A stretch of 64,000 nucleotides of DNA from positions 29,329 to 93,328 of the forward strand of contig JBBRNV010000003.1 of the NCBI GenBank assembly GCA_038230075.1, read 5' to 3'. Shown in pieces: positions 49,160 through 55,902 of this stretch. The stretch is from Minisyncoccia bacterium. Its GTDB lineage: Bacteria > Patescibacteriota > Minisyncoccia > Phycocordibacterales > CALRBL01. The notes below the pieces were generated by a model. That model was not told the origin of the DNA and did not search any database. It was given only the letters and a program-made list of their open reading frames with translations. Made by a program: the position numbers and the translations under genes. Within the stretch, counting starts at the first letter, position 1; every line of letters begins with the position of its first letter.

Positions 49160-51094
49160 TTATTTTGTTTTGAATTCATAGACCCCGTTCCAATTTTCTG
49201 GAGGTTGTTCAATCAAATGTGTGCATCGTTCAATATATACAGCACTTGGTCCGTCATGGTGAAATGATAATGCTTGATTGAAAGAATTGATAGCATTTTT
49301 AAAATCTCCTTGAACATACAACACTCTTCCTTGTTCAAACTTTTGTAAGATTTCTGTAATGTGAGGAGTCTCTGGACGAGTAAGAAGTTCATATATTACT
49401 TTTGGCTCTTTTTTCCCTTTTACAATTACTCGGTCAAGTTCTCTGAATAGAATTTGAGGATGATTTTGTTGTGTCGAAGGTGAAAGTTTTTTAAGACTCG
49501 CTTCGCATTGTTTTTTTGTTTCTTCAGTAATAATGCATTCAACTCCATATGCCTTAGTTAAACCTTCGAGTCGTGATCCTAAGTTAACCTCGTCACCCAT
49601 AATGGTGTAATTGAATCGCCGTTTGCTTCCCATATTTCCAACAACAACATCTCCTGTGTTGAGTCCAATTCCAATCGCAATAGTTGGCGAATTTCTTTCA
49701 ACGAGTGATTCATTTAATTTTTTCAACTCTGCAGACATGGTAAGTGAAGCGACACACGCATCGTATGCTTGATCGTTATTTTGAAGTGGTGCTCCCCAGA
49801 ACGCCATAATTGCGTCACCAATATATTTATCAACCAATCCTCGTTTGTTCATGATGGTGTCGGTCATTAATGTGAGGTATTCATTTAACAGATTAGTCAG
49901 TTCTTCTGGAGACAATTTTTCAGAAAGTGTGGTGAAGCCTCGAATGTCTGAGAATAAAACAGTAACTTTCTTTCGTTCACCCCCCAATTTTAATTTATCT
50001 GGATTTTCGAGAAGTTCGTTGATAACATCGGGCATTAAATAATACTGAAATGTTTTATGAATCATTCGCTTTTCTTTTCCTTCAGAAATATATGAATACA
50101 GAAAGCTTAAGATTCCTGAAACAATAAAAGCAAGAAGTGCATACAATGTTCCGAAAATATAATGAAAATGAAATACACTAAATGTTCCAAGAATGATAAG
50201 AGCAAAGATACTTGAAAGACTAATAATTACGAGAGAAAGTCTCTTTGAAAGAACAATAGAAAGAGAAGTGAGGAGTGAGATAAGGAAAAGAATTAAAAGG
50301 AAAAGTGCGTTTGGAATAGGTGTGAGAAAATTTTTCTCAAGAAGTGTGTTGATGGCATTTGCATGAACTTCAACACCAGCCATGCTTCCGAATGGAGTCT
50401 GTAGTTGATCATGTAAATCATTCGCCGTCACTCCAATAAGCACAATGGCATTATCAAATATTCTAGCAGGAATTTTATGTTCGAAAACGTCAGCAAAAGA
50501 AAGTATTAAAAAACTTTTTGAGGGACCGACGAACGTAATTCTGTTTTGAGTTGATGTTTCTGTTTGTCCTGAGACAACACTTGAAAAGCTGCGCTCACTA
50601 TCATTACTCGTATTGTTAATTCGTCGAACGATTCCGTCAGAATCTACAGGGATATTTACAAAGCCTTTTTTTACCGACTGATCAAAAAGAGGGAGTGGGC
50701 GTACTCCAACTGTACTGTCATCTCTTAATTGAAGAGGGAAAGTGACAGGGACTTTTGAAGCATTGATAGCTTCTTTAAAAACCAGGTCATCATTATTGTC
50801 TTTGAACGAAGGACTTGAGAAGTCGATATCAAAACCGATAGCTTTAGCAAGTTGAAGATCGGGAATAACCGACGCAAATGTTTTTCGTTCCCAAGGCCAA
50901 CGTCCCATACTCTGAAGACTTTCATCGTCAATTCCAAGAATGATAATAGAAGATGTAACTTTTTGCTTCAGAAATAAATGATCAGTGATTTTTTCTTGCC
51001 ATGTTCCAAAAACATTGTATGTGTAGGCGAAAGCAGAAAGAATAAAAGCAACAAGTACAAATAAACTCGTAATAATTATTTTTTTATTTGGCAT
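49160..51094 (-). CDS. CHASE2-sensor class III adenylate/guanylate cyclase with a C-terminal TPR-like tail
   Basis: N-terminal TM helix plus CHASE2-like periplasmic domain, a four-helix TM block, and a cyclase core (VTVLFSDIRGFT ... GDAIMAFWGAP ... IGLNTGDVVVGNMG). Confidence 0.8.
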   Translation of the reverse strand: MPNKKIIITSLFVLVAFILSAFAYTYNVFGTWQEKITDHLFLKQKVTSSIIILGIDDESLQSMGRWPWERKTFASVIPDLQLAKAIGFDIDFSSPSFKDNNDDLVFKEAINASKVPVTFPLQLRDDSTVGVRPLPLFDQSVKKGFVNIPVDSDGIVRRINNTSNDSERSFSSVVSGQTETSTQNRITFVGPSKSFLILSFADVFEHKIPARIFDNAIVLIGVTANDLHDQLQTPFGSMAGVEVHANAINTLLEKNFLTPIPNALFLLILFLISLLTSLSIVLSKRLSLVIISLSSIFALIILGTFSVFHFHYIFGTLYALLAFIVSGILSFLYSYISEGKEKRMIHKTFQYYLMPDVINELLENPDKLKLGGERKKVTVLFSDIRGFTTLSEKLSPEELTNLLNEYLTLMTDTIMNKRGLVDKYIGDAIMAFWGAPLQNNDQAYDACVASLTMSAELKKLNESLVERNSPTIAIGIGLNTGDVVVGNMGSKRRFNYTIMGDEVNLGSRLEGLTKAYGVECIITEETKKQCEASLKKLSPSTQQNHPQILFRELDRVIVKGKKEPKVIYELLTRPETPHITEILQKFEQGRVLYVQGDFKNAINSFNQALSFHHDGPSAVYIERCTHLIEQPPENWNGVYEFKTK

Positions 51095-51098
51095 GTGT

Positions 51099-52277
51099 TT
51101 AATACCCAGTCGTGTACGAACCGTATGAGTAGGTAACTGTTAGGCCACTTTTATATGAAACAGTAGAGTCATCTTTTAATAGAAGATATACATCGTAAGT
51201 GCCTGGAGAAAGCTGGCCGATATGAAATTGAAGTGTTCCATCATCGATAACAGAAAGATCTTGGACATTGTTTTCTCCAATGATGACATCTGAAACATTT
51301 TGGAAACCAGTTCCTTTAAGAATGACATATGTTTTATTGTCGCCAGAAGCAATACTTGATGGAGTAACACTTCGAATACTTGTTGGTGTTGAAGCACCAC
51401 TTGTTCCTCCTGAAGAAGCTGGTGCAGATGGTGATGGAGCCGATGTGATTCCTCCTCCCGAAGATTGTCGAGGAGGGACTGGTGTTACCGGTGGTGGTGT
51501 TATGCTCGAATTGTTTCTTGTAGTGGTTGTAGCTCGAGGAGTACTTGTTGAAGTTGTTATTGGTTTTACAGAAATTGTTGCGTCGCTTGTAATAACAACT
51601 GGCTTTGCATCTGCATTATTATAGACATACCATTCTTTCTTCATGTCATCACCTGAAATGGGAATAACCACAATATCTTTTCCATCTTCAATGATTGCTT
51701 TAAATCCTGCCTTAACAGAAGTTTCAGTTCCTTGAATAGGTTCTCCTGTTGTAGGATCTTTTTTGTACACAAATACTTCACCTTCAGTAACATTTACTTC
51801 AGTAATGCCACCTGCAAAGTTCACGCCAAATGATGTACCACGAACAACAGCAACAGCATTTCCTGTTTTAATTTCGAAAAATTCTCCTTGTTCAGCAGAT
51901 TTTTTAGCACGTGCCCATAATTCACCACCAAGTAGTTCAATGTTATTTTTTGTCGTGTCGTCAGAGGTGCTCACTACCACCTCACTGTTGTAATCAACCA
52001 TAGTTGGATGTCCGTGAGGAGATTCAATAAGTGCTCGTCCGGTTGATGAGGTTTTAATTACAGAGTTGCTTGGAGTAGTTGTACTTGTTGGAATAGCTGT
52101 GTCGGAAGAAGCATCTTTCATTCGAAGTGAAACATTCTGTTCAACGGTCGTTACGGTAATAGGAAATGTTGCTGCAGATGTGGGCATGACTGTTTTTGTG
52201 TCCGATTGATTTTTGTATAAAAGAAAGACAGCCCCAAGAATGATAATCGCGACTATACCAAGTGAAAGTTTTTTCAT
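51099..52277 (-). CDS. FecR-domain plus IPT/TIG-domain secreted or anchored protein
   Basis: N-terminal TM helix; FecR-like beta region (AVVRGTSFGVNFAGGITEVNVTEGEVFVY); Pro/Ser/Thr linker; C-terminal IPT-like domain; 4 bp upstream of the cyclase start. Confidence 0.55.
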   Translation of the reverse strand: MKKLSLGIVAIIILGAVFLLYKNQSDTKTVMPTSAATFPITVTTVEQNVSLRMKDASSDTAIPTSTTTPSNSVIKTSSTGRALIESPHGHPTMVDYNSEVVVSTSDDTTKNNIELLGGELWARAKKSAEQGEFFEIKTGNAVAVVRGTSFGVNFAGGITEVNVTEGEVFVYKKDPTTGEPIQGTETSVKAGFKAIIEDGKDIVVIPISGDDMKKEWYVYNNADAKPVVITSDATISVKPITTSTSTPRATTTTRNNSSITPPPVTPVPPRQSSGGGITSAPSPSAPASSGGTSGASTPTSIRSVTPSSIASGDNKTYVILKGTGFQNVSDVIIGENNVQDLSVIDDGTLQFHIGQLSPGTYDVYLLLKDDSTVSYKSGLTVTYSYGSYTTGY

Positions 52278-52720: not shown

Positions 52721-53020
52721 TTAGTTGCGCAACCGAATGCTTAAGGGGCCAATGTTGATGGCGGAAAGCCGTTGCGCCAACTTCTGACGCTGCTGCGGAG
52801 GAGTAGTATGGTTGAAACCACCATGAGTGGTTGGAGGGACAAACTTTTGACCTTCAGGTTGCATGATCGGATAGAGCCGACCATCTTTCAACAAGTAGGC
52901 CACATGGACCAATTTCTTGGTTGGGCGGCGCGCAGGCTGCTGAGCCTGTGCGGAAGGGGTGAAGATGACGGAGGTGAAGGCGAACACGAGGAGCGCCAAG
53001 ACGAGTTTGAGGATGTTGTT
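52721..53020 (-). CDS. hypothetical small secreted protein; GC-rich cassette
   Basis: Signal peptide (LALLVFAFTSVIFTPSAQA), GC3-rich codons; start set at the Met that begins the signal peptide. Confidence 0.5.
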   Translation of the reverse strand, partial: NNILKLVLALLVFAFTSVIFTPSAQAQQPARRPTKKLVHVAYLLKDGRLYPIMQPEGQKFVPPTTHGGFNHTTPPQQRQKLAQRLSAINIGPLSIRLRN

Positions 53021-53146
53021 CATGCTATCTAAAGCCAGGCTAACTAGCTTCACATAGCATGAACACATCGAAGAACTTTACTATCGTATTATACCATATT
53101 ACTGATAAATGTCAATTAATCAGACAACATTAAACCAGCCTTTATG

Positions 53147-53833
53147 TTAGGTTCTTTTATGACCTTTCTTCCATTCAATGAGTGATCCAGCTTTTAATTC
53201 CATGTTGTCTGCCTTTCTTAGGTATTTGATATTTTGTTGAGGAATAATTGATGTATGTGGTGATTCATCAAGTGCATCTGCTATGTGATCTAAGTTTTGT
53301 TCTGAGGTTATCCACTTTGTTCCAAACTTTTTTACATTAAAAGGTTTTGAAAAACTGCGAAGAGTTTTCTTTTTTGTTTTATTATCAAAATATTCATGAA
53401 AGTATGAAAGTGCTAATTCTCGAATTGTTTTATATACAGGATCTCTAAAACGAAGTGTTGAATGATTTGTTTTACTAATCGCTCCCCAGTATCCATTAAT
53501 TTTATAAAGTGCAACGACATGATCAACATCATCTTCTGTTTTTAAATCAAGAATGAGTGGTTCTTCTCCGTGAATCCACAAAGCTAGAGCGGCAAGAAGT
53601 GCACCTTCAAAACAATGCGCTTTTTCTTCCTTTAACACTCTTCGTGGTGACATATAGGTGTCACCTTTCTTTTCCCAATTAACAGGAAGGGAATCGAGAA
53701 AGTCTTGTATTTTAATAGGTGTTGAAAGTGCCTTAAGCTTTTTTAATTCGTGTGATGAAAGTCCAAACATTAATAAAGTATAACAAAACCAAAGAGAGAT
53801 GTTCTGGTATTCATTCCATTCATGCGGTACCAT
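53147..53833 (-). CDS. hypothetical protein with a papain-fold Cys-His-Asp arrangement (transglutaminase-like or arylamine-N-acetyltransferase-like)
   Basis: AHCFEGALLAALAL (Cys74) then DHVVALY (His105) then RFRDP (Asp131); the spacing is compatible with a TGase-like or NAT catalytic triad; this is motif-level evidence only. Confidence 0.45.
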   Translation of the reverse strand: MVPHEWNEYQNISLWFCYTLLMFGLSSHELKKLKALSTPIKIQDFLDSLPVNWEKKGDTYMSPRRVLKEEKAHCFEGALLAALALWIHGEEPLILDLKTEDDVDHVVALYKINGYWGAISKTNHSTLRFRDPVYKTIRELALSYFHEYFDNKTKKKTLRSFSKPFNVKKFGTKWITSEQNLDHIADALDESPHTSIIPQQNIKYLRKADNMELKAGSLIEWKKGHKRT

Positions 53834-53841
53834 AATGCTCT

Positions 53842-54243
53842 ATGCGAAAAAGTAAGTACACTCCTGGAGACTACAAAGTTGTTGTTAAGCGTTCATCTGC
53901 AGGTCTTGGTTTATTTGCTTCTGAAGAAATTCCAAAAGGAAAGTGTGTCATCGAATATGTGGGAAGAGTAATTAAAGGAAAAGAAGAATATACCAGCAAT
54001 AGTAAATACTTATTTGAGGTTCACTCTCGAAAAACTATTGATGGAAGAGATCGCTCAAATATAGCTCGATATATTAATCATTCATGCAAAGCAAATGCTG
54101 AACCGACTATTCATAAAGCACGAGTATTTATTATGTCTAAAAGGAAGATACTTGCTGGAGAAGAGATTGTGTATGACTATGGTGAAGATTATTGGGGTGA
54201 ACACATACAACCAAAAGGATGCAGGTGTAGAAAGTGCTCATAG
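53842..54243 (+). CDS. minimal SET-domain protein lysine methyltransferase
   Basis: GLGLFA (GxG), RYINHSCKANAE (NHSCxxN), EEIVYDYGEDYW (ELxxDY) and post-SET CRCRKC. Confidence 0.8.
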   Translation: MRKSKYTPGDYKVVVKRSSAGLGLFASEEIPKGKCVIEYVGRVIKGKEEYTSNSKYLFEVHSRKTIDGRDRSNIARYINHSCKANAEPTIHKARVFIMSKRKILAGEEIVYDYGEDYWGEHIQPKGCRCRKCS

Positions 54244-54823
54244 CACCACGTTTCGTTGACTTTCTTTGTAAAGATTGTACTGTATTTTAAGAATGAAAAC
54301 TATTTCTGGTTGGAGGCCGACATTGTTGGCAGAAAGGTTGTTAGAAGAGCGTGAGAATCGCGGTGGGTTTATACAAAAAAGGTAGTTGAGAAGACAAAAA
54401 TCAAAAAGGTCTGGGGAAAAAATGCAAAAAAAAGACCGAAAGCTCGTCCCGGATTTCACCTGACCAGCAAACCCAAAGAACTTGCTCGACATTTTGTTGG
54501 AAACCGATTTCTGACTGCTTTGAAAGGAAAGTTGTTTCGAGATCCTTCCAACTTCTATTACTTTATGTGGAATGCTGTGCACGTGCACATTTTACACATG
54601 AGCGAAGAGGGGTTGGTGGATGTTCTTGAAAAGTTCTCTTCGAACGATCCTTCTTTTCCGCGAAGTATGACCGCAGAACGGCTGCTTCGTGGTAATCTCA
54701 CTAACAGCTTTTACCAAAAGGGACAAGTTGTTACATATGTAGATTCGGTGATTGCAATCATCGTTGCTGCCGTCTATGATTTTGTTTTTCCTCCCACACT
54801 TTCTGTTGCTCAAAAACAAGGCA

Positions 54824-54857
54824 ACAAAAAGAAAAAGAAAAAGAAAAAGAAAAAAAA
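54824..54857 (+). repeat. (AAAAAG)n microsatellite
   Basis: aaaaagaaaaagaaaaagaaaaagaaaaaaaa read directly. Confidence 0.8.
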
Positions 54858-55027
54858 TTTCGCGCTACAATCTCACTCCAACCACTGACCTCGCCTTAAA
54901 CCGGCGAGTTTTGTGTTTTATAAAACAAAGCTCCGCGTATCAATATATAAAAAGGAAAACCGCTCGCCGAAGGTGAGCTCATTGAGCGGGTCCTTGGGGA
55001 GCGATTTGTGTACCGAATGTTCGAAGA

Positions 55028-55759
55028 CTAGCCGCCAGGAGTGTAGATCGGCATCTCCTTAAACTTGAGACGACGAATCAGGTCGGTGAGGATGAGTCGA
55101 ACCACTTGGTCTCGATTCATATCAGTATTGTCGATTTCCATCGAACAAGGATGCCTCACGAATGGTGAAACCGATCTTTCGGTATCGTGCCTGTCGCGCT
55201 TCTGGAGCCCTTGTACGATCTCTGCGTACGTTTGTTCGGGCTGATCTTTCGGCTGATCCTTAAAGCGGCGAGCTGCTCTCGTGGCGACCTCGGCGGTGAT
55301 GAAGTAGCCGCTGCACCGACCGTTTTCGGCGTCGAAGATTTTTCTCATGTCCCGACCTTCGGGCACGAGACCAGGCAGTTGCCTGCGGGACATCTGATAG
55401 TCGTGCATCATCGCACGTACTTCTGGTATTGCGCTGACAGCGGAAACCCGATCCGAGCAAGCCTTGTAGCGAATTTCTTCGGTGACTTCGATTTCACCGA
55501 CGAAAACCTTCCCATCGACGAACGTTGTCGGATACTGAAGTGCGACTTCGATCACATTGTTCGGATTGGTGATGTCGATACCGTGGACGATGGTGAGGTG
55601 TGCCACCGACCGGTAGAGAGCGCCGCTGTCGAGGTGTTTGAAGCCGAGAATTCGAGCAAGCTCACGAGCGGTCGAACTTTTGCCGGATCCGCCAGGACCA
55701 TCGATGGCGATAACTTCTGCGAGTAGATTAGGAGGTGTTAGTTGAGTGAGGGTGGCCAT
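55028..55759 (-). CDS. cmk: cytidylate kinase; GC-rich gene
   Basis: IAIDGPGGSGKSSTARELARILGFKHLDSGALYR matches the Cmk P-loop/NMP-binding signature; GC3-rich codons, about 55% GC. Confidence 0.8.
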   Translation of the reverse strand: MATLTQLTPPNLLAEVIAIDGPGGSGKSSTARELARILGFKHLDSGALYRSVAHLTIVHGIDITNPNNVIEVALQYPTTFVDGKVFVGEIEVTEEIRYKACSDRVSAVSAIPEVRAMMHDYQMSRRQLPGLVPEGRDMRKIFDAENGRCSGYFITAEVATRAARRFKDQPKDQPEQTYAEIVQGLQKRDRHDTERSVSPFVRHPCSMEIDNTDMNRDQVVRLILTDLIRRLKFKEMPIYTPGG

Positions 55760-55902
55760 TCGGCCTCCTTTCTTTTTCGAGGGGTGAAACTGTGGGTGAG
55801 GTTCGTCTTCGAAACACATGTATGAGTCAAAGAAGAGCTTTCAATAGAGTAGTGGTTTAGAGCATTAAAGTCAAACCATATATTACAACAAAGAGAATAA
55901 CT

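Follow-up and report, generated by a model that had tools for sequence, protein, structure and literature searches.

A conserved divergent gene pair encoding a CPR-C4-family, vasohibin-like peptidase and a SET-domain methyltransferase in Paceibacteria-type bacteria

Within a 64,000-nucleotide stretch of the Minisyncoccia bacterium contig JBBRNV010000003.1 (hereafter, the window, meaning the whole stretch of DNA that was analyzed), a minus-strand gene for a 228-amino-acid (aa) papain-fold protein and a plus-strand gene for a 133-aa SET-domain protein lie head-to-head. The starts of the two longest open reading frames (ORFs) are 8 bp apart (53834-53841). Both ORFs and their coordinates are as the first-pass annotation of this DNA had described them, and its motifs and residue numbering are likewise right: AHCFEGALLAALAL (Cys74), DHVVALY (His105), RFRDP (Asp131), and Met22 at 53770. 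Each gene is present in a single copy within the window. The 228-aa protein has at least 7,688 database matches, nearly all from assemblies of the Patescibacteria, or Candidate Phyla Radiation (CPR), and the SET protein has about 3,600 homologs (3,630 matches). Because the homologs are so numerous, because the protease has a homolog of solved structure (E 4e-63), and because the SET protein scores above the Pfam gathering cut-off, comparison with known sequences indicates that both ORFs are genuine genes and not chance ORFs.

By sequence and by modeled fold, the minus-strand product is a vasohibin-like cysteine peptidase of the CPR-C4 family, within the transglutaminase-like (papain-fold) superfamily, and it is predicted to be cytoplasmic. 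Its phmmer matches in the PDB are the CPR-C4 structures 7PJO, 7OB6, and 7OB7, aligned over query residues 24-223 and chain residues 22-232. An AlphaFold (AF2) model, computed with 26 homologs as input and having a mean predicted local distance difference test (pLDDT) score of 87.7, aligns in Foldseek with 7ob6_B at a template-modeling (TM) score of 0.87, 54% identity, and a root-mean-square deviation of 2.0 Å over 203 columns. Behind CPR-C4 rank, in order, the human vasohibins VASH1 and VASH2 (E 1.5e-6, TM 0.46-0.50), LapG (E 4e-3), a transglutaminase (TGase; E 3e-2), and arylamine N-acetyltransferases (NATs). A Pfam scan of the 228-aa protein returns no family above threshold, the “transglutaminase-like” DUF553 reaching E 0.0074, and the Pfam Vasohibin family PF14822 gives no match even at E values up to 1. 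The first-pass annotation had offered two guesses at the fold. A transglutaminase-like cysteine peptidase is borne out by the matches to CPR-C4, vasohibins, LapG, and TGase. The NAT-like acyltransferase alternative is rejected: there is no Pfam NAT match, and the NAT structures align without significance (Foldseek E 0.07-0.13, TM 0.25-0.32).

CPR-C4 itself, a cysteine protease in the transglutaminase-like superfamily, forms dimers and is active on labeled casein, which it cleaves slowly, releasing fluorescent fragments (Cornish et al., J Biol Chem 2022, PMC9108980). Its catalytic triad is Cys61-His93-Leu115, with the leucine contributing its backbone carbonyl; a tri-Asp Zn site accompanies the triad, and the pocket is positively charged (PMC9108980). 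Our alignment comprised the window protein, CPR-C4, and 80 species-level homologs (n = 82). The first-pass annotation had read Cys74-His105-Asp131 as the triad and had asked whether these residues are conserved in homologs. All three are invariant, and the Cys and His keep their catalytic assignments, being equivalent to C61 and H93. Asp131, however, gives way as third member of the triad because the solved homolog uses the Leu115 carbonyl, whose position is occupied here by Leu127. Asp131 is nonetheless invariant, as are R128, R130, and P132 of the same R-x-R-D-P motif (82/82), and the CPR-C4 counterpart, D119, receives no mention in PMC9108980. Residues D96, D104, and D189 of the window protease, matching CPR-C4 D83, D92, and D182, preserve the tri-Asp Zn site, which is frequent but not obligatory within the CPR-C4 family (subfamily CP01A, PMC9108980). 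Full-length similarity, the Cys and His, a hydrophobic residue at position 115, the fold, and the Zn site together mark the window protease as a CP01A member. As a separate observation, Ser120 (codon 53474-53476; CPR-C4 Ser108) is invariant in the 82 sequences, whereas Ser occupies this position in 41.9% of the wider subfamily (PMC9108980); the difference probably reflects our sampling of nearer relatives.

The plus-strand product is, on the evidence of its sequence, a minimal SET plus post-SET protein lysine methyltransferase that depends on S-adenosylmethionine; its catalytic motifs are intact, and the enzyme is predicted to be active. The Pfam SET match spans the full profile (1-105) at 78.9 bits, against a cut-off of 22.4. 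The SET-post-SET regions of KMT2D, KMT2C, and MLL1 are the best PDB matches (E 2e-15), with the alignment extending to residue 129-132. Across 120 homologs, the GxG glycines (G21 and G23), Y39, N79-H80-S81-C82, E108, Y111-D112-Y113, and the post-SET cysteines are each at least 95% conserved. The NCBIfam LegAS4 model (NF043024) also matches the SET protein (E 3e-12), at 46 bits versus a cut-off of 550 and over profile positions 27-140 of 439, which is the SET core alone. With that score and no ankyrin region matched, a Legionella LegAS4/RomA-type effector of a type IV secretion system was rejected. Neither protein has a signal peptide or an additional domain at its N-terminus; this result and the low LegAS4 score leave the label “effector-like” that the first-pass annotation had attached to the pair without support. 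Finally, neither protein matches the PADLOC anti-phage defense models or the PHROGs phage families, and a defense-system or phage origin of the pair was rejected as well.

The true protease start is probably Met22 rather than the first codon of the longest ORF, a possibility that had already been raised and that several lines of comparison now favor. Specifically, protease homologs are 207-208 aa long and cover 91% of the 228-aa query, leaving the N-terminal extension uncovered. The longest ORF begins exactly at the Met22 equivalent in 35 of 80 cases, and an ATG stands at that codon in 48 of 81 loci. In addition, a -10-like hexamer precedes the Met22 ATG by 6 nt. A TAnnnT hexamer at exactly this distance occurs in 17 of 50 loci, compared with 0-5 (mostly 0-3) at other offsets, and the 17 include all of the divergent-pair loci scored, namely, seven GTDB loci, L082, and the window; L029, also a divergent pair, was left out of the scoring for want of an aligned start codon. 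On the opposite strand, a second -10-like hexamer lies just before the SET start, and TATAAT- or TATATT-like boxes are found 5-11 nt before it in most related divergent loci. Because the two boxes sit only 6 nt and 5 nt before the starts, we infer that the protease and SET mRNAs are probably leaderless or near-leaderless. No Shine-Dalgarno sequence precedes either the protease start (Met22) or the SET start. The intergenic regions equivalent to that of the window measure 39-79 bp in nine related divergent pairs. More broadly, upstream regions of loci L002-L082 suggest that leaderless expression of the CPR-C4-family gene is common among CPR bacteria. The features of the locus are collected in Table 1.

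Table 1. Features of the protease-SET locus, in window coordinates, and positions of the SWIB genes in related loci, in the coordinates of each locus. Conservation is given over 82 aligned sequences for the protease and over 120 homologs for the SET protein.
Feature	Position	Strand	Remarks
Protease, longest/annotated ORF	53147..53833	-	228 aa
Protease, probable true CDS	53147..53770	-	207 aa from Met22, stop included; homolog lengths, PDB match
N-terminal extension of longest ORF, 21 codons	53771..53833	-	Probably untranslated; outside homolog cover; -10-like box inside
Met22 codon	53768..53770	-	
Asp131 codon	53441..53443	-	CPR-C4 Asp119, in R-x-R-D-P motif; 82/82
Leu127 codon	53453..53455	-	CPR-C4 Leu115, backbone carbonyl is third triad member (PMC9108980); L 61, I 18, V 3
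His105 codon	53519..53521	-	CPR-C4 His93, catalytic base; 82/82
Cys74 codon	53612..53614	-	CPR-C4 Cys61, catalytic nucleophile; 82/82
Divergent intergenic region, 71 bp	53771..53841	.	Both putative promoters inside
-10-like hexamer TATACT	53777..53782	-	6 nt upstream of Met22 ATG; putative leaderless protease promoter
-10-like hexamer CATAAT	53831..53836	+	5 nt before SET ATG; putative promoter, no or very short leader
SET plus post-SET protein lysine methyltransferase (predicted) CDS	53842..54243	+	133 aa; Pfam SET 4.6e-22; best PDB KMT2D/KMT2C/MLL1
NHSC motif, residues 79-82	54076..54087	+	N79, H80, C82 120/120; S81 118/120
Y-D-Y of ELxYDY, residues 111-113	54172..54180	+	Y111 118/120, D112 116/120, Y113 120/120
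Post-SET CxCxxC, C127/C129/C132	54220..54237	+	C127, C129 120/120; C132 118/120
SWIB genes in related loci	L022 3603-3845; L062 823-1074; L082 4383-4634; L101 5509-5760; L102 5478-5729; L104 5519-5770		

The gene pair is conserved in Paceibacteria-type CPR bacteria while its surroundings are reshuffled. Starting from the protease, we compared the local neighborhoods of 80 loci from different GTDB species, whose protease homologs are 57-71% identical to that of the window. Of these loci, 25 have a SET ortholog (51-70% identity) no more than 1.7 kb from the protease gene, as do 16 of the 52 that have at least 3 kb on both sides; SET is the commonest genuine neighbor cluster of the protease gene. 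The arrangement varies. Eight loci are divergent and adjacent, as in the window (gaps 39-94 bp), three are in tandem with SET immediately downstream (gaps 53-101 bp), about 12 are in tandem but separated by one or two genes, often including an oppositely oriented F420-ligase-like gene, and two (L078 and L064) are arranged in other ways. On a neighbor-joining tree of the protease, tandem loci group essentially into one clade, and the divergent form appears on several deep branches. Starting from SET, we sampled six homologs that are 69-73% identical and were picked solely for lying on long contigs: the protease gene is divergently adjacent in all six. The 16 divergent pairs form seven groups that, besides the pair, have no flank gene in common within 5 kb. 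Given this recurrent pairing across contexts, the linkage is real, reaches beyond one synteny block, and survives rearrangement, but it is partial: within 5 kb, a SET gene is missing from 55 of the 80 protease loci.

Related loci have further recurrent neighbors of the pair, although no SWIB, cold-shock-domain (CSD), or F420-ligase-like gene is present in the 64-kb window. A small SWIB/MDM2-domain gene, 80-88% identical between loci and mostly convergent with SET, is found immediately past SET in 6 of the 16 divergent loci. Near SET, CSD genes are also recurrent in both classes of arrangement. The tandem clade has the gene order c3, protease, F420-ligase-like, SET, CSD, PAP2. Its F420-0:gamma-glutamyl-ligase-like (CofE-like) gene, found at 16 loci (L018, L020, L055, L057, L061, L067, L077, and others), commonly stands on the opposite strand between protease and SET or just upstream. 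A glutamyl ligase next to a basic-pocket peptidase may be worth a look.

The known protein that the window protease resembles most is CPR-C4, a full-length homolog with which it shares not only identity and fold but also triad positions, Zn site, size, and origin in CPR bacteria. The settings differ. CPR-C4 derives from a 75 °C hot-spring contig, whereas the window protease belongs to a mesophile-like, low-GC genome; furthermore, the published gene lies beside ABC-transporter genes, with no informative context (PMC9108980), whereas the window gene is head-to-head with SET. Human VASH1 and VASH2, the tubulin detyrosinating carboxypeptidases of PF14822, share the core fold and, per PMC9108980, a non-canonical triad geometry. 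They are, however, ~15% identical to the window protein, which has no Pfam Vasohibin match. CPR-C4 differs from the vasohibins in lacking an SVBP partner and SVBP-binding helices and in having a pocket of opposite charge (PMC9108980). Farther away, LapG/DUF920 and other bacterial transglutaminase-like cysteine proteases have the same superfamily fold and likewise use Cys-His chemistry (Foldseek E 4e-3 to 3e-2). LapG, located in the periplasm and dependent on calcium, cleaves an adhesin using a Cys-His-Asp triad. In the window protease, by contrast, a signal peptide is absent, and a Leu carbonyl takes the third catalytic position.

CPR-C4-like sequences also exist in eukaryotes. Long proteins that are 40-45% identical to the window protease are encoded by the choanoflagellate Stephanoeca diplocostata (P0317) and the cryptophyte Guillardia theta (P0304, XP_005825204), and the cluster of a further such protein, P0392, includes a choanoflagellate member (Bicosta minor). 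A zf-MYND finger is present in P0392 and in another of these long proteins, P0302, and an fn3 domain is present in P0392 and P0317. P0392 and P0304 have weak direct Pfam Vasohibin matches (~5e-4), bridging CPR-C4 and the vasohibins at the sequence level.

On the SET side, the resemblance is to the KMT2/MLL catalytic domains, with which the window protein shares the GxG, NHSC, and ELxYDY motifs and the CxCxxC post-SET. Stand-alone SET proteins include Chlorella-virus vSET, Methanosarcina Go1-SET, and chlamydial SET; vSET is similar in size to the ~130 aa of the window protein. What sets the latter apart is that it has no flanking eukaryotic domains and that it is paired divergently with a vasohibin-like protease, an arrangement that we did not find described for the minimal SET enzymes. 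As for the arrangement itself, Korbel et al. reportedly found in 2004 that conserved divergently transcribed gene pairs predict functional association. The window pair is like such pairs in its head-to-head orientation, its very short shared upstream region, and its conservation across divergent genomes. Most conserved divergent pairs include a transcription factor; in the window pair, both partners are enzymes. We found no description of a bacterial SET-CPR-C4, SET-vasohibin, or SET-transglutaminase neighborhood in the literature searched, which covered few subscription journals. The components are known, and the conserved pairing, new but modest, appears to be unreported. The first-pass annotation had spoken of an uncharacterized module. 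That description suits the pairing but not the protease family, for which crystal structures and an in vitro assay exist (PMC9108980).

The explanation that we favor, and in which we place moderate confidence, is that a CPR-C4 peptidase and a SET methyltransferase form a conserved pair that is divergently co-expressed and may act on a common endogenous target. Specifically, the two genes would be transcribed in opposite directions from the back-to-back -10 boxes of the compact 71-bp region and would thus be co-expressed. With less assurance, we suggest that the products could be a two-enzyme post-translational modification pair working on the same endogenous protein. The SET methyltransferase would mark a lysine on this target, and the vasohibin-like peptidase would trim or cleave a specific tail, as vasohibin does with the tubulin tail; tubulin itself is, to our knowledge, absent from these bacteria. 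The tail would probably be acidic because the positively charged pocket described in PMC9108980 suggests so. Small nucleoid- or RNA-associated proteins would be candidate targets; the hint, which is no proof, comes from the SWIB and cold-shock genes found repeatedly next to the pair in relatives.

Several results weigh against such coupling. A consensus sigma-70 scan finds no full -35/-10 promoter in 53771-53841, and 53740-53870 contains no direct or inverted repeats or operator-like palindromes, hence no shared operator motif. For these reasons, the promoter assignment is our inference, and a shared operator for the pair was rejected, the conserved elements being the -10-like boxes alone. The published CPR-C4 activity was shown on casein, and we found no active-site mutants in the text of PMC9108980. 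The protease family apparently outnumbers the SET family, with at least 7,688 matches against 3,630 (1,303 clusters at 50% identity), and the protease can hence do without SET. When metagenomes were scanned with SET, 19 loci were recovered, most of them short; the pair is present in one of them, the closest (66% identity), and the SET genes at 52-60% identity with usable flanks have no protease gene beside them. A concatenated protease-SET query revealed no Rosetta-stone fusion: no top match spans both halves, and all are at most 228 aa. The unlinked SET group, the lack of a fusion, and the majority of protease loci with no SET nearby are what one would look for if the adjacency were an old neighborhood, kept by descent and genome compaction, of two enzymes with unrelated targets. 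The same can be said of the tandem arrangement, which is essentially one clade with broader synteny, and of the CPR-C4 paper, which saw no conserved context (PMC9108980). We consider such neutral retention rather unlikely. The divergent pair persists in at least seven contexts with no other common flank gene, all six close SET homologs keep it, proximity outlasts orientation changes and gene insertions, and no other neighbor spans both arrangement classes at comparable frequency. The first-pass annotation had staked its proposal on co-occurrence of the genes in related genomes and on conservation of the Cys, His, and Asp. The proposal survives because the genes do co-occur in relatives and the three residues are invariant. 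As proximity within a locus, co-occurrence holds for the 25 protease loci and the six close SET homologs but not for the 55 protease loci and the 52-60% SET group.

Two further alternatives concern what the proteins do rather than whether they are coupled. The CPR-C4-like protein could be, in vivo, a side-chain enzyme of the transglutaminase type (an isopeptidase, transamidase, or deamidase) and not primarily a peptidase, with SET competing for, or acting in sequence on, the same lysine epsilon-amines. Such chemistry would suit the transglutaminase-like fold, the weak DUF553 hit, and the Foldseek matches to TGase and LapG; moreover, slow cleavage of labeled casein is the sole demonstrated activity, we found no catalytic mutants in the text, and the invariant R-x-R-D-P, including Asp131, is left unexplained. 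We nevertheless regard a side-chain activity as very unlikely: after CPR-C4, the nearest characterized fold relatives are the vasohibins, which are main-chain carboxypeptidases, and CPR-C4 did release fluorescent fragments from casein. Least supported, and in our judgment extremely improbable, is that the pair consists of eukaryote-like effectors delivered into a host, in the manner of LegAS4/RomA or chlamydial NUE-type SET effectors together with a protease. Both folds are typical of eukaryotes, the partial LegAS4 match exists, as do the eukaryotic CPR-C4-like proteins, and CPR bacteria are episymbionts (PMC9108980). However, that match falls far below its cut-off and is confined to the SET core, neither N-terminus resembles a signal peptide or carries another domain, and secretion genes are not among the recurrent neighbors of the pair in relatives. 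The family is, in addition, near-ubiquitous in these lineages, most of which are thought to have prokaryotic hosts (PMC9108980).

The favored reading, a co-expressed peptidase and methyltransferase with a common target, can be extended into a speculation that we hold to be unlikely as a whole. SET and the CPR-C4 peptidase, with SWIB in a subset of genomes, might constitute a dedicated bacterial protein-tail code, in which one enzyme writes a mark on lysine and the other, the peptidase, trims the tail. Both would be expressed together from a single divergent promoter region of 40-80 bp, and their common substrate would be a protein associated with the nucleoid, RNA, or division. Such a code would be a prokaryotic counterpart of the systems that modify chromatin and tubulin in eukaryotes, possibly related to them by descent, and the MYND-fused CPR-C4-like proteins (choanoflagellate-derived clusters) would be what is left of that link.

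The surroundings of the pair in the window offer several side observations. To the right of SET, ~780 bp (54244-55027) contain no credible ORF, Pfam match, or Rfam match. A third gene or RNA at this place was considered and rejected, the ORFs in 54238-54888 being without Pfam match and Rfam giving noise only. An A-rich (AAAAAG)n tract occupies ~54826-54858, and an independent Logan contig with the same genes ends inside it, at 54854. The cytidylate kinase gene at 55028-55819 (Pfam 1.6e-48) has a GC content of 0.53-0.55 versus ~0.36 around it; this GC-rich patch may reflect horizontal acquisition of the gene or a chimeric join in the assembly. On the other side of the pair lies a perfect 12/12 sigma-70 consensus promoter (53088-53115, minus strand: TTGACA, 16 nt, TATAAT, with a TG extension). 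Directly downstream of this promoter is a 115-aa ORF (52721-53068, minus strand) that lacks a Pfam match; GC is ~0.45 in this patch. The minus strand of 49160-52277 encodes a CHASE2-sensor nucleotide cyclase (644 aa) and, immediately after it, a FecR-domain protein with a long Ser/Thr/Pro-rich region. Near the cyclase are genes for Nramp, a response regulator, a histidine kinase, and MIP, and a pilin-like gene.

Here, the annotated start of the protease and its presumed third catalytic residue have been corrected. Should the coupling of the two genes have no functional meaning, what is left is a pair of unremarkable representatives of known enzyme families. CPR-C4 is among the most conserved proteins of the Candidate Phyla Radiation that have no assigned role, and the position of its gene had offered no clue to its physiological function (PMC9108980). 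The pairing with SET provides a first genomic, testable lead to that role.

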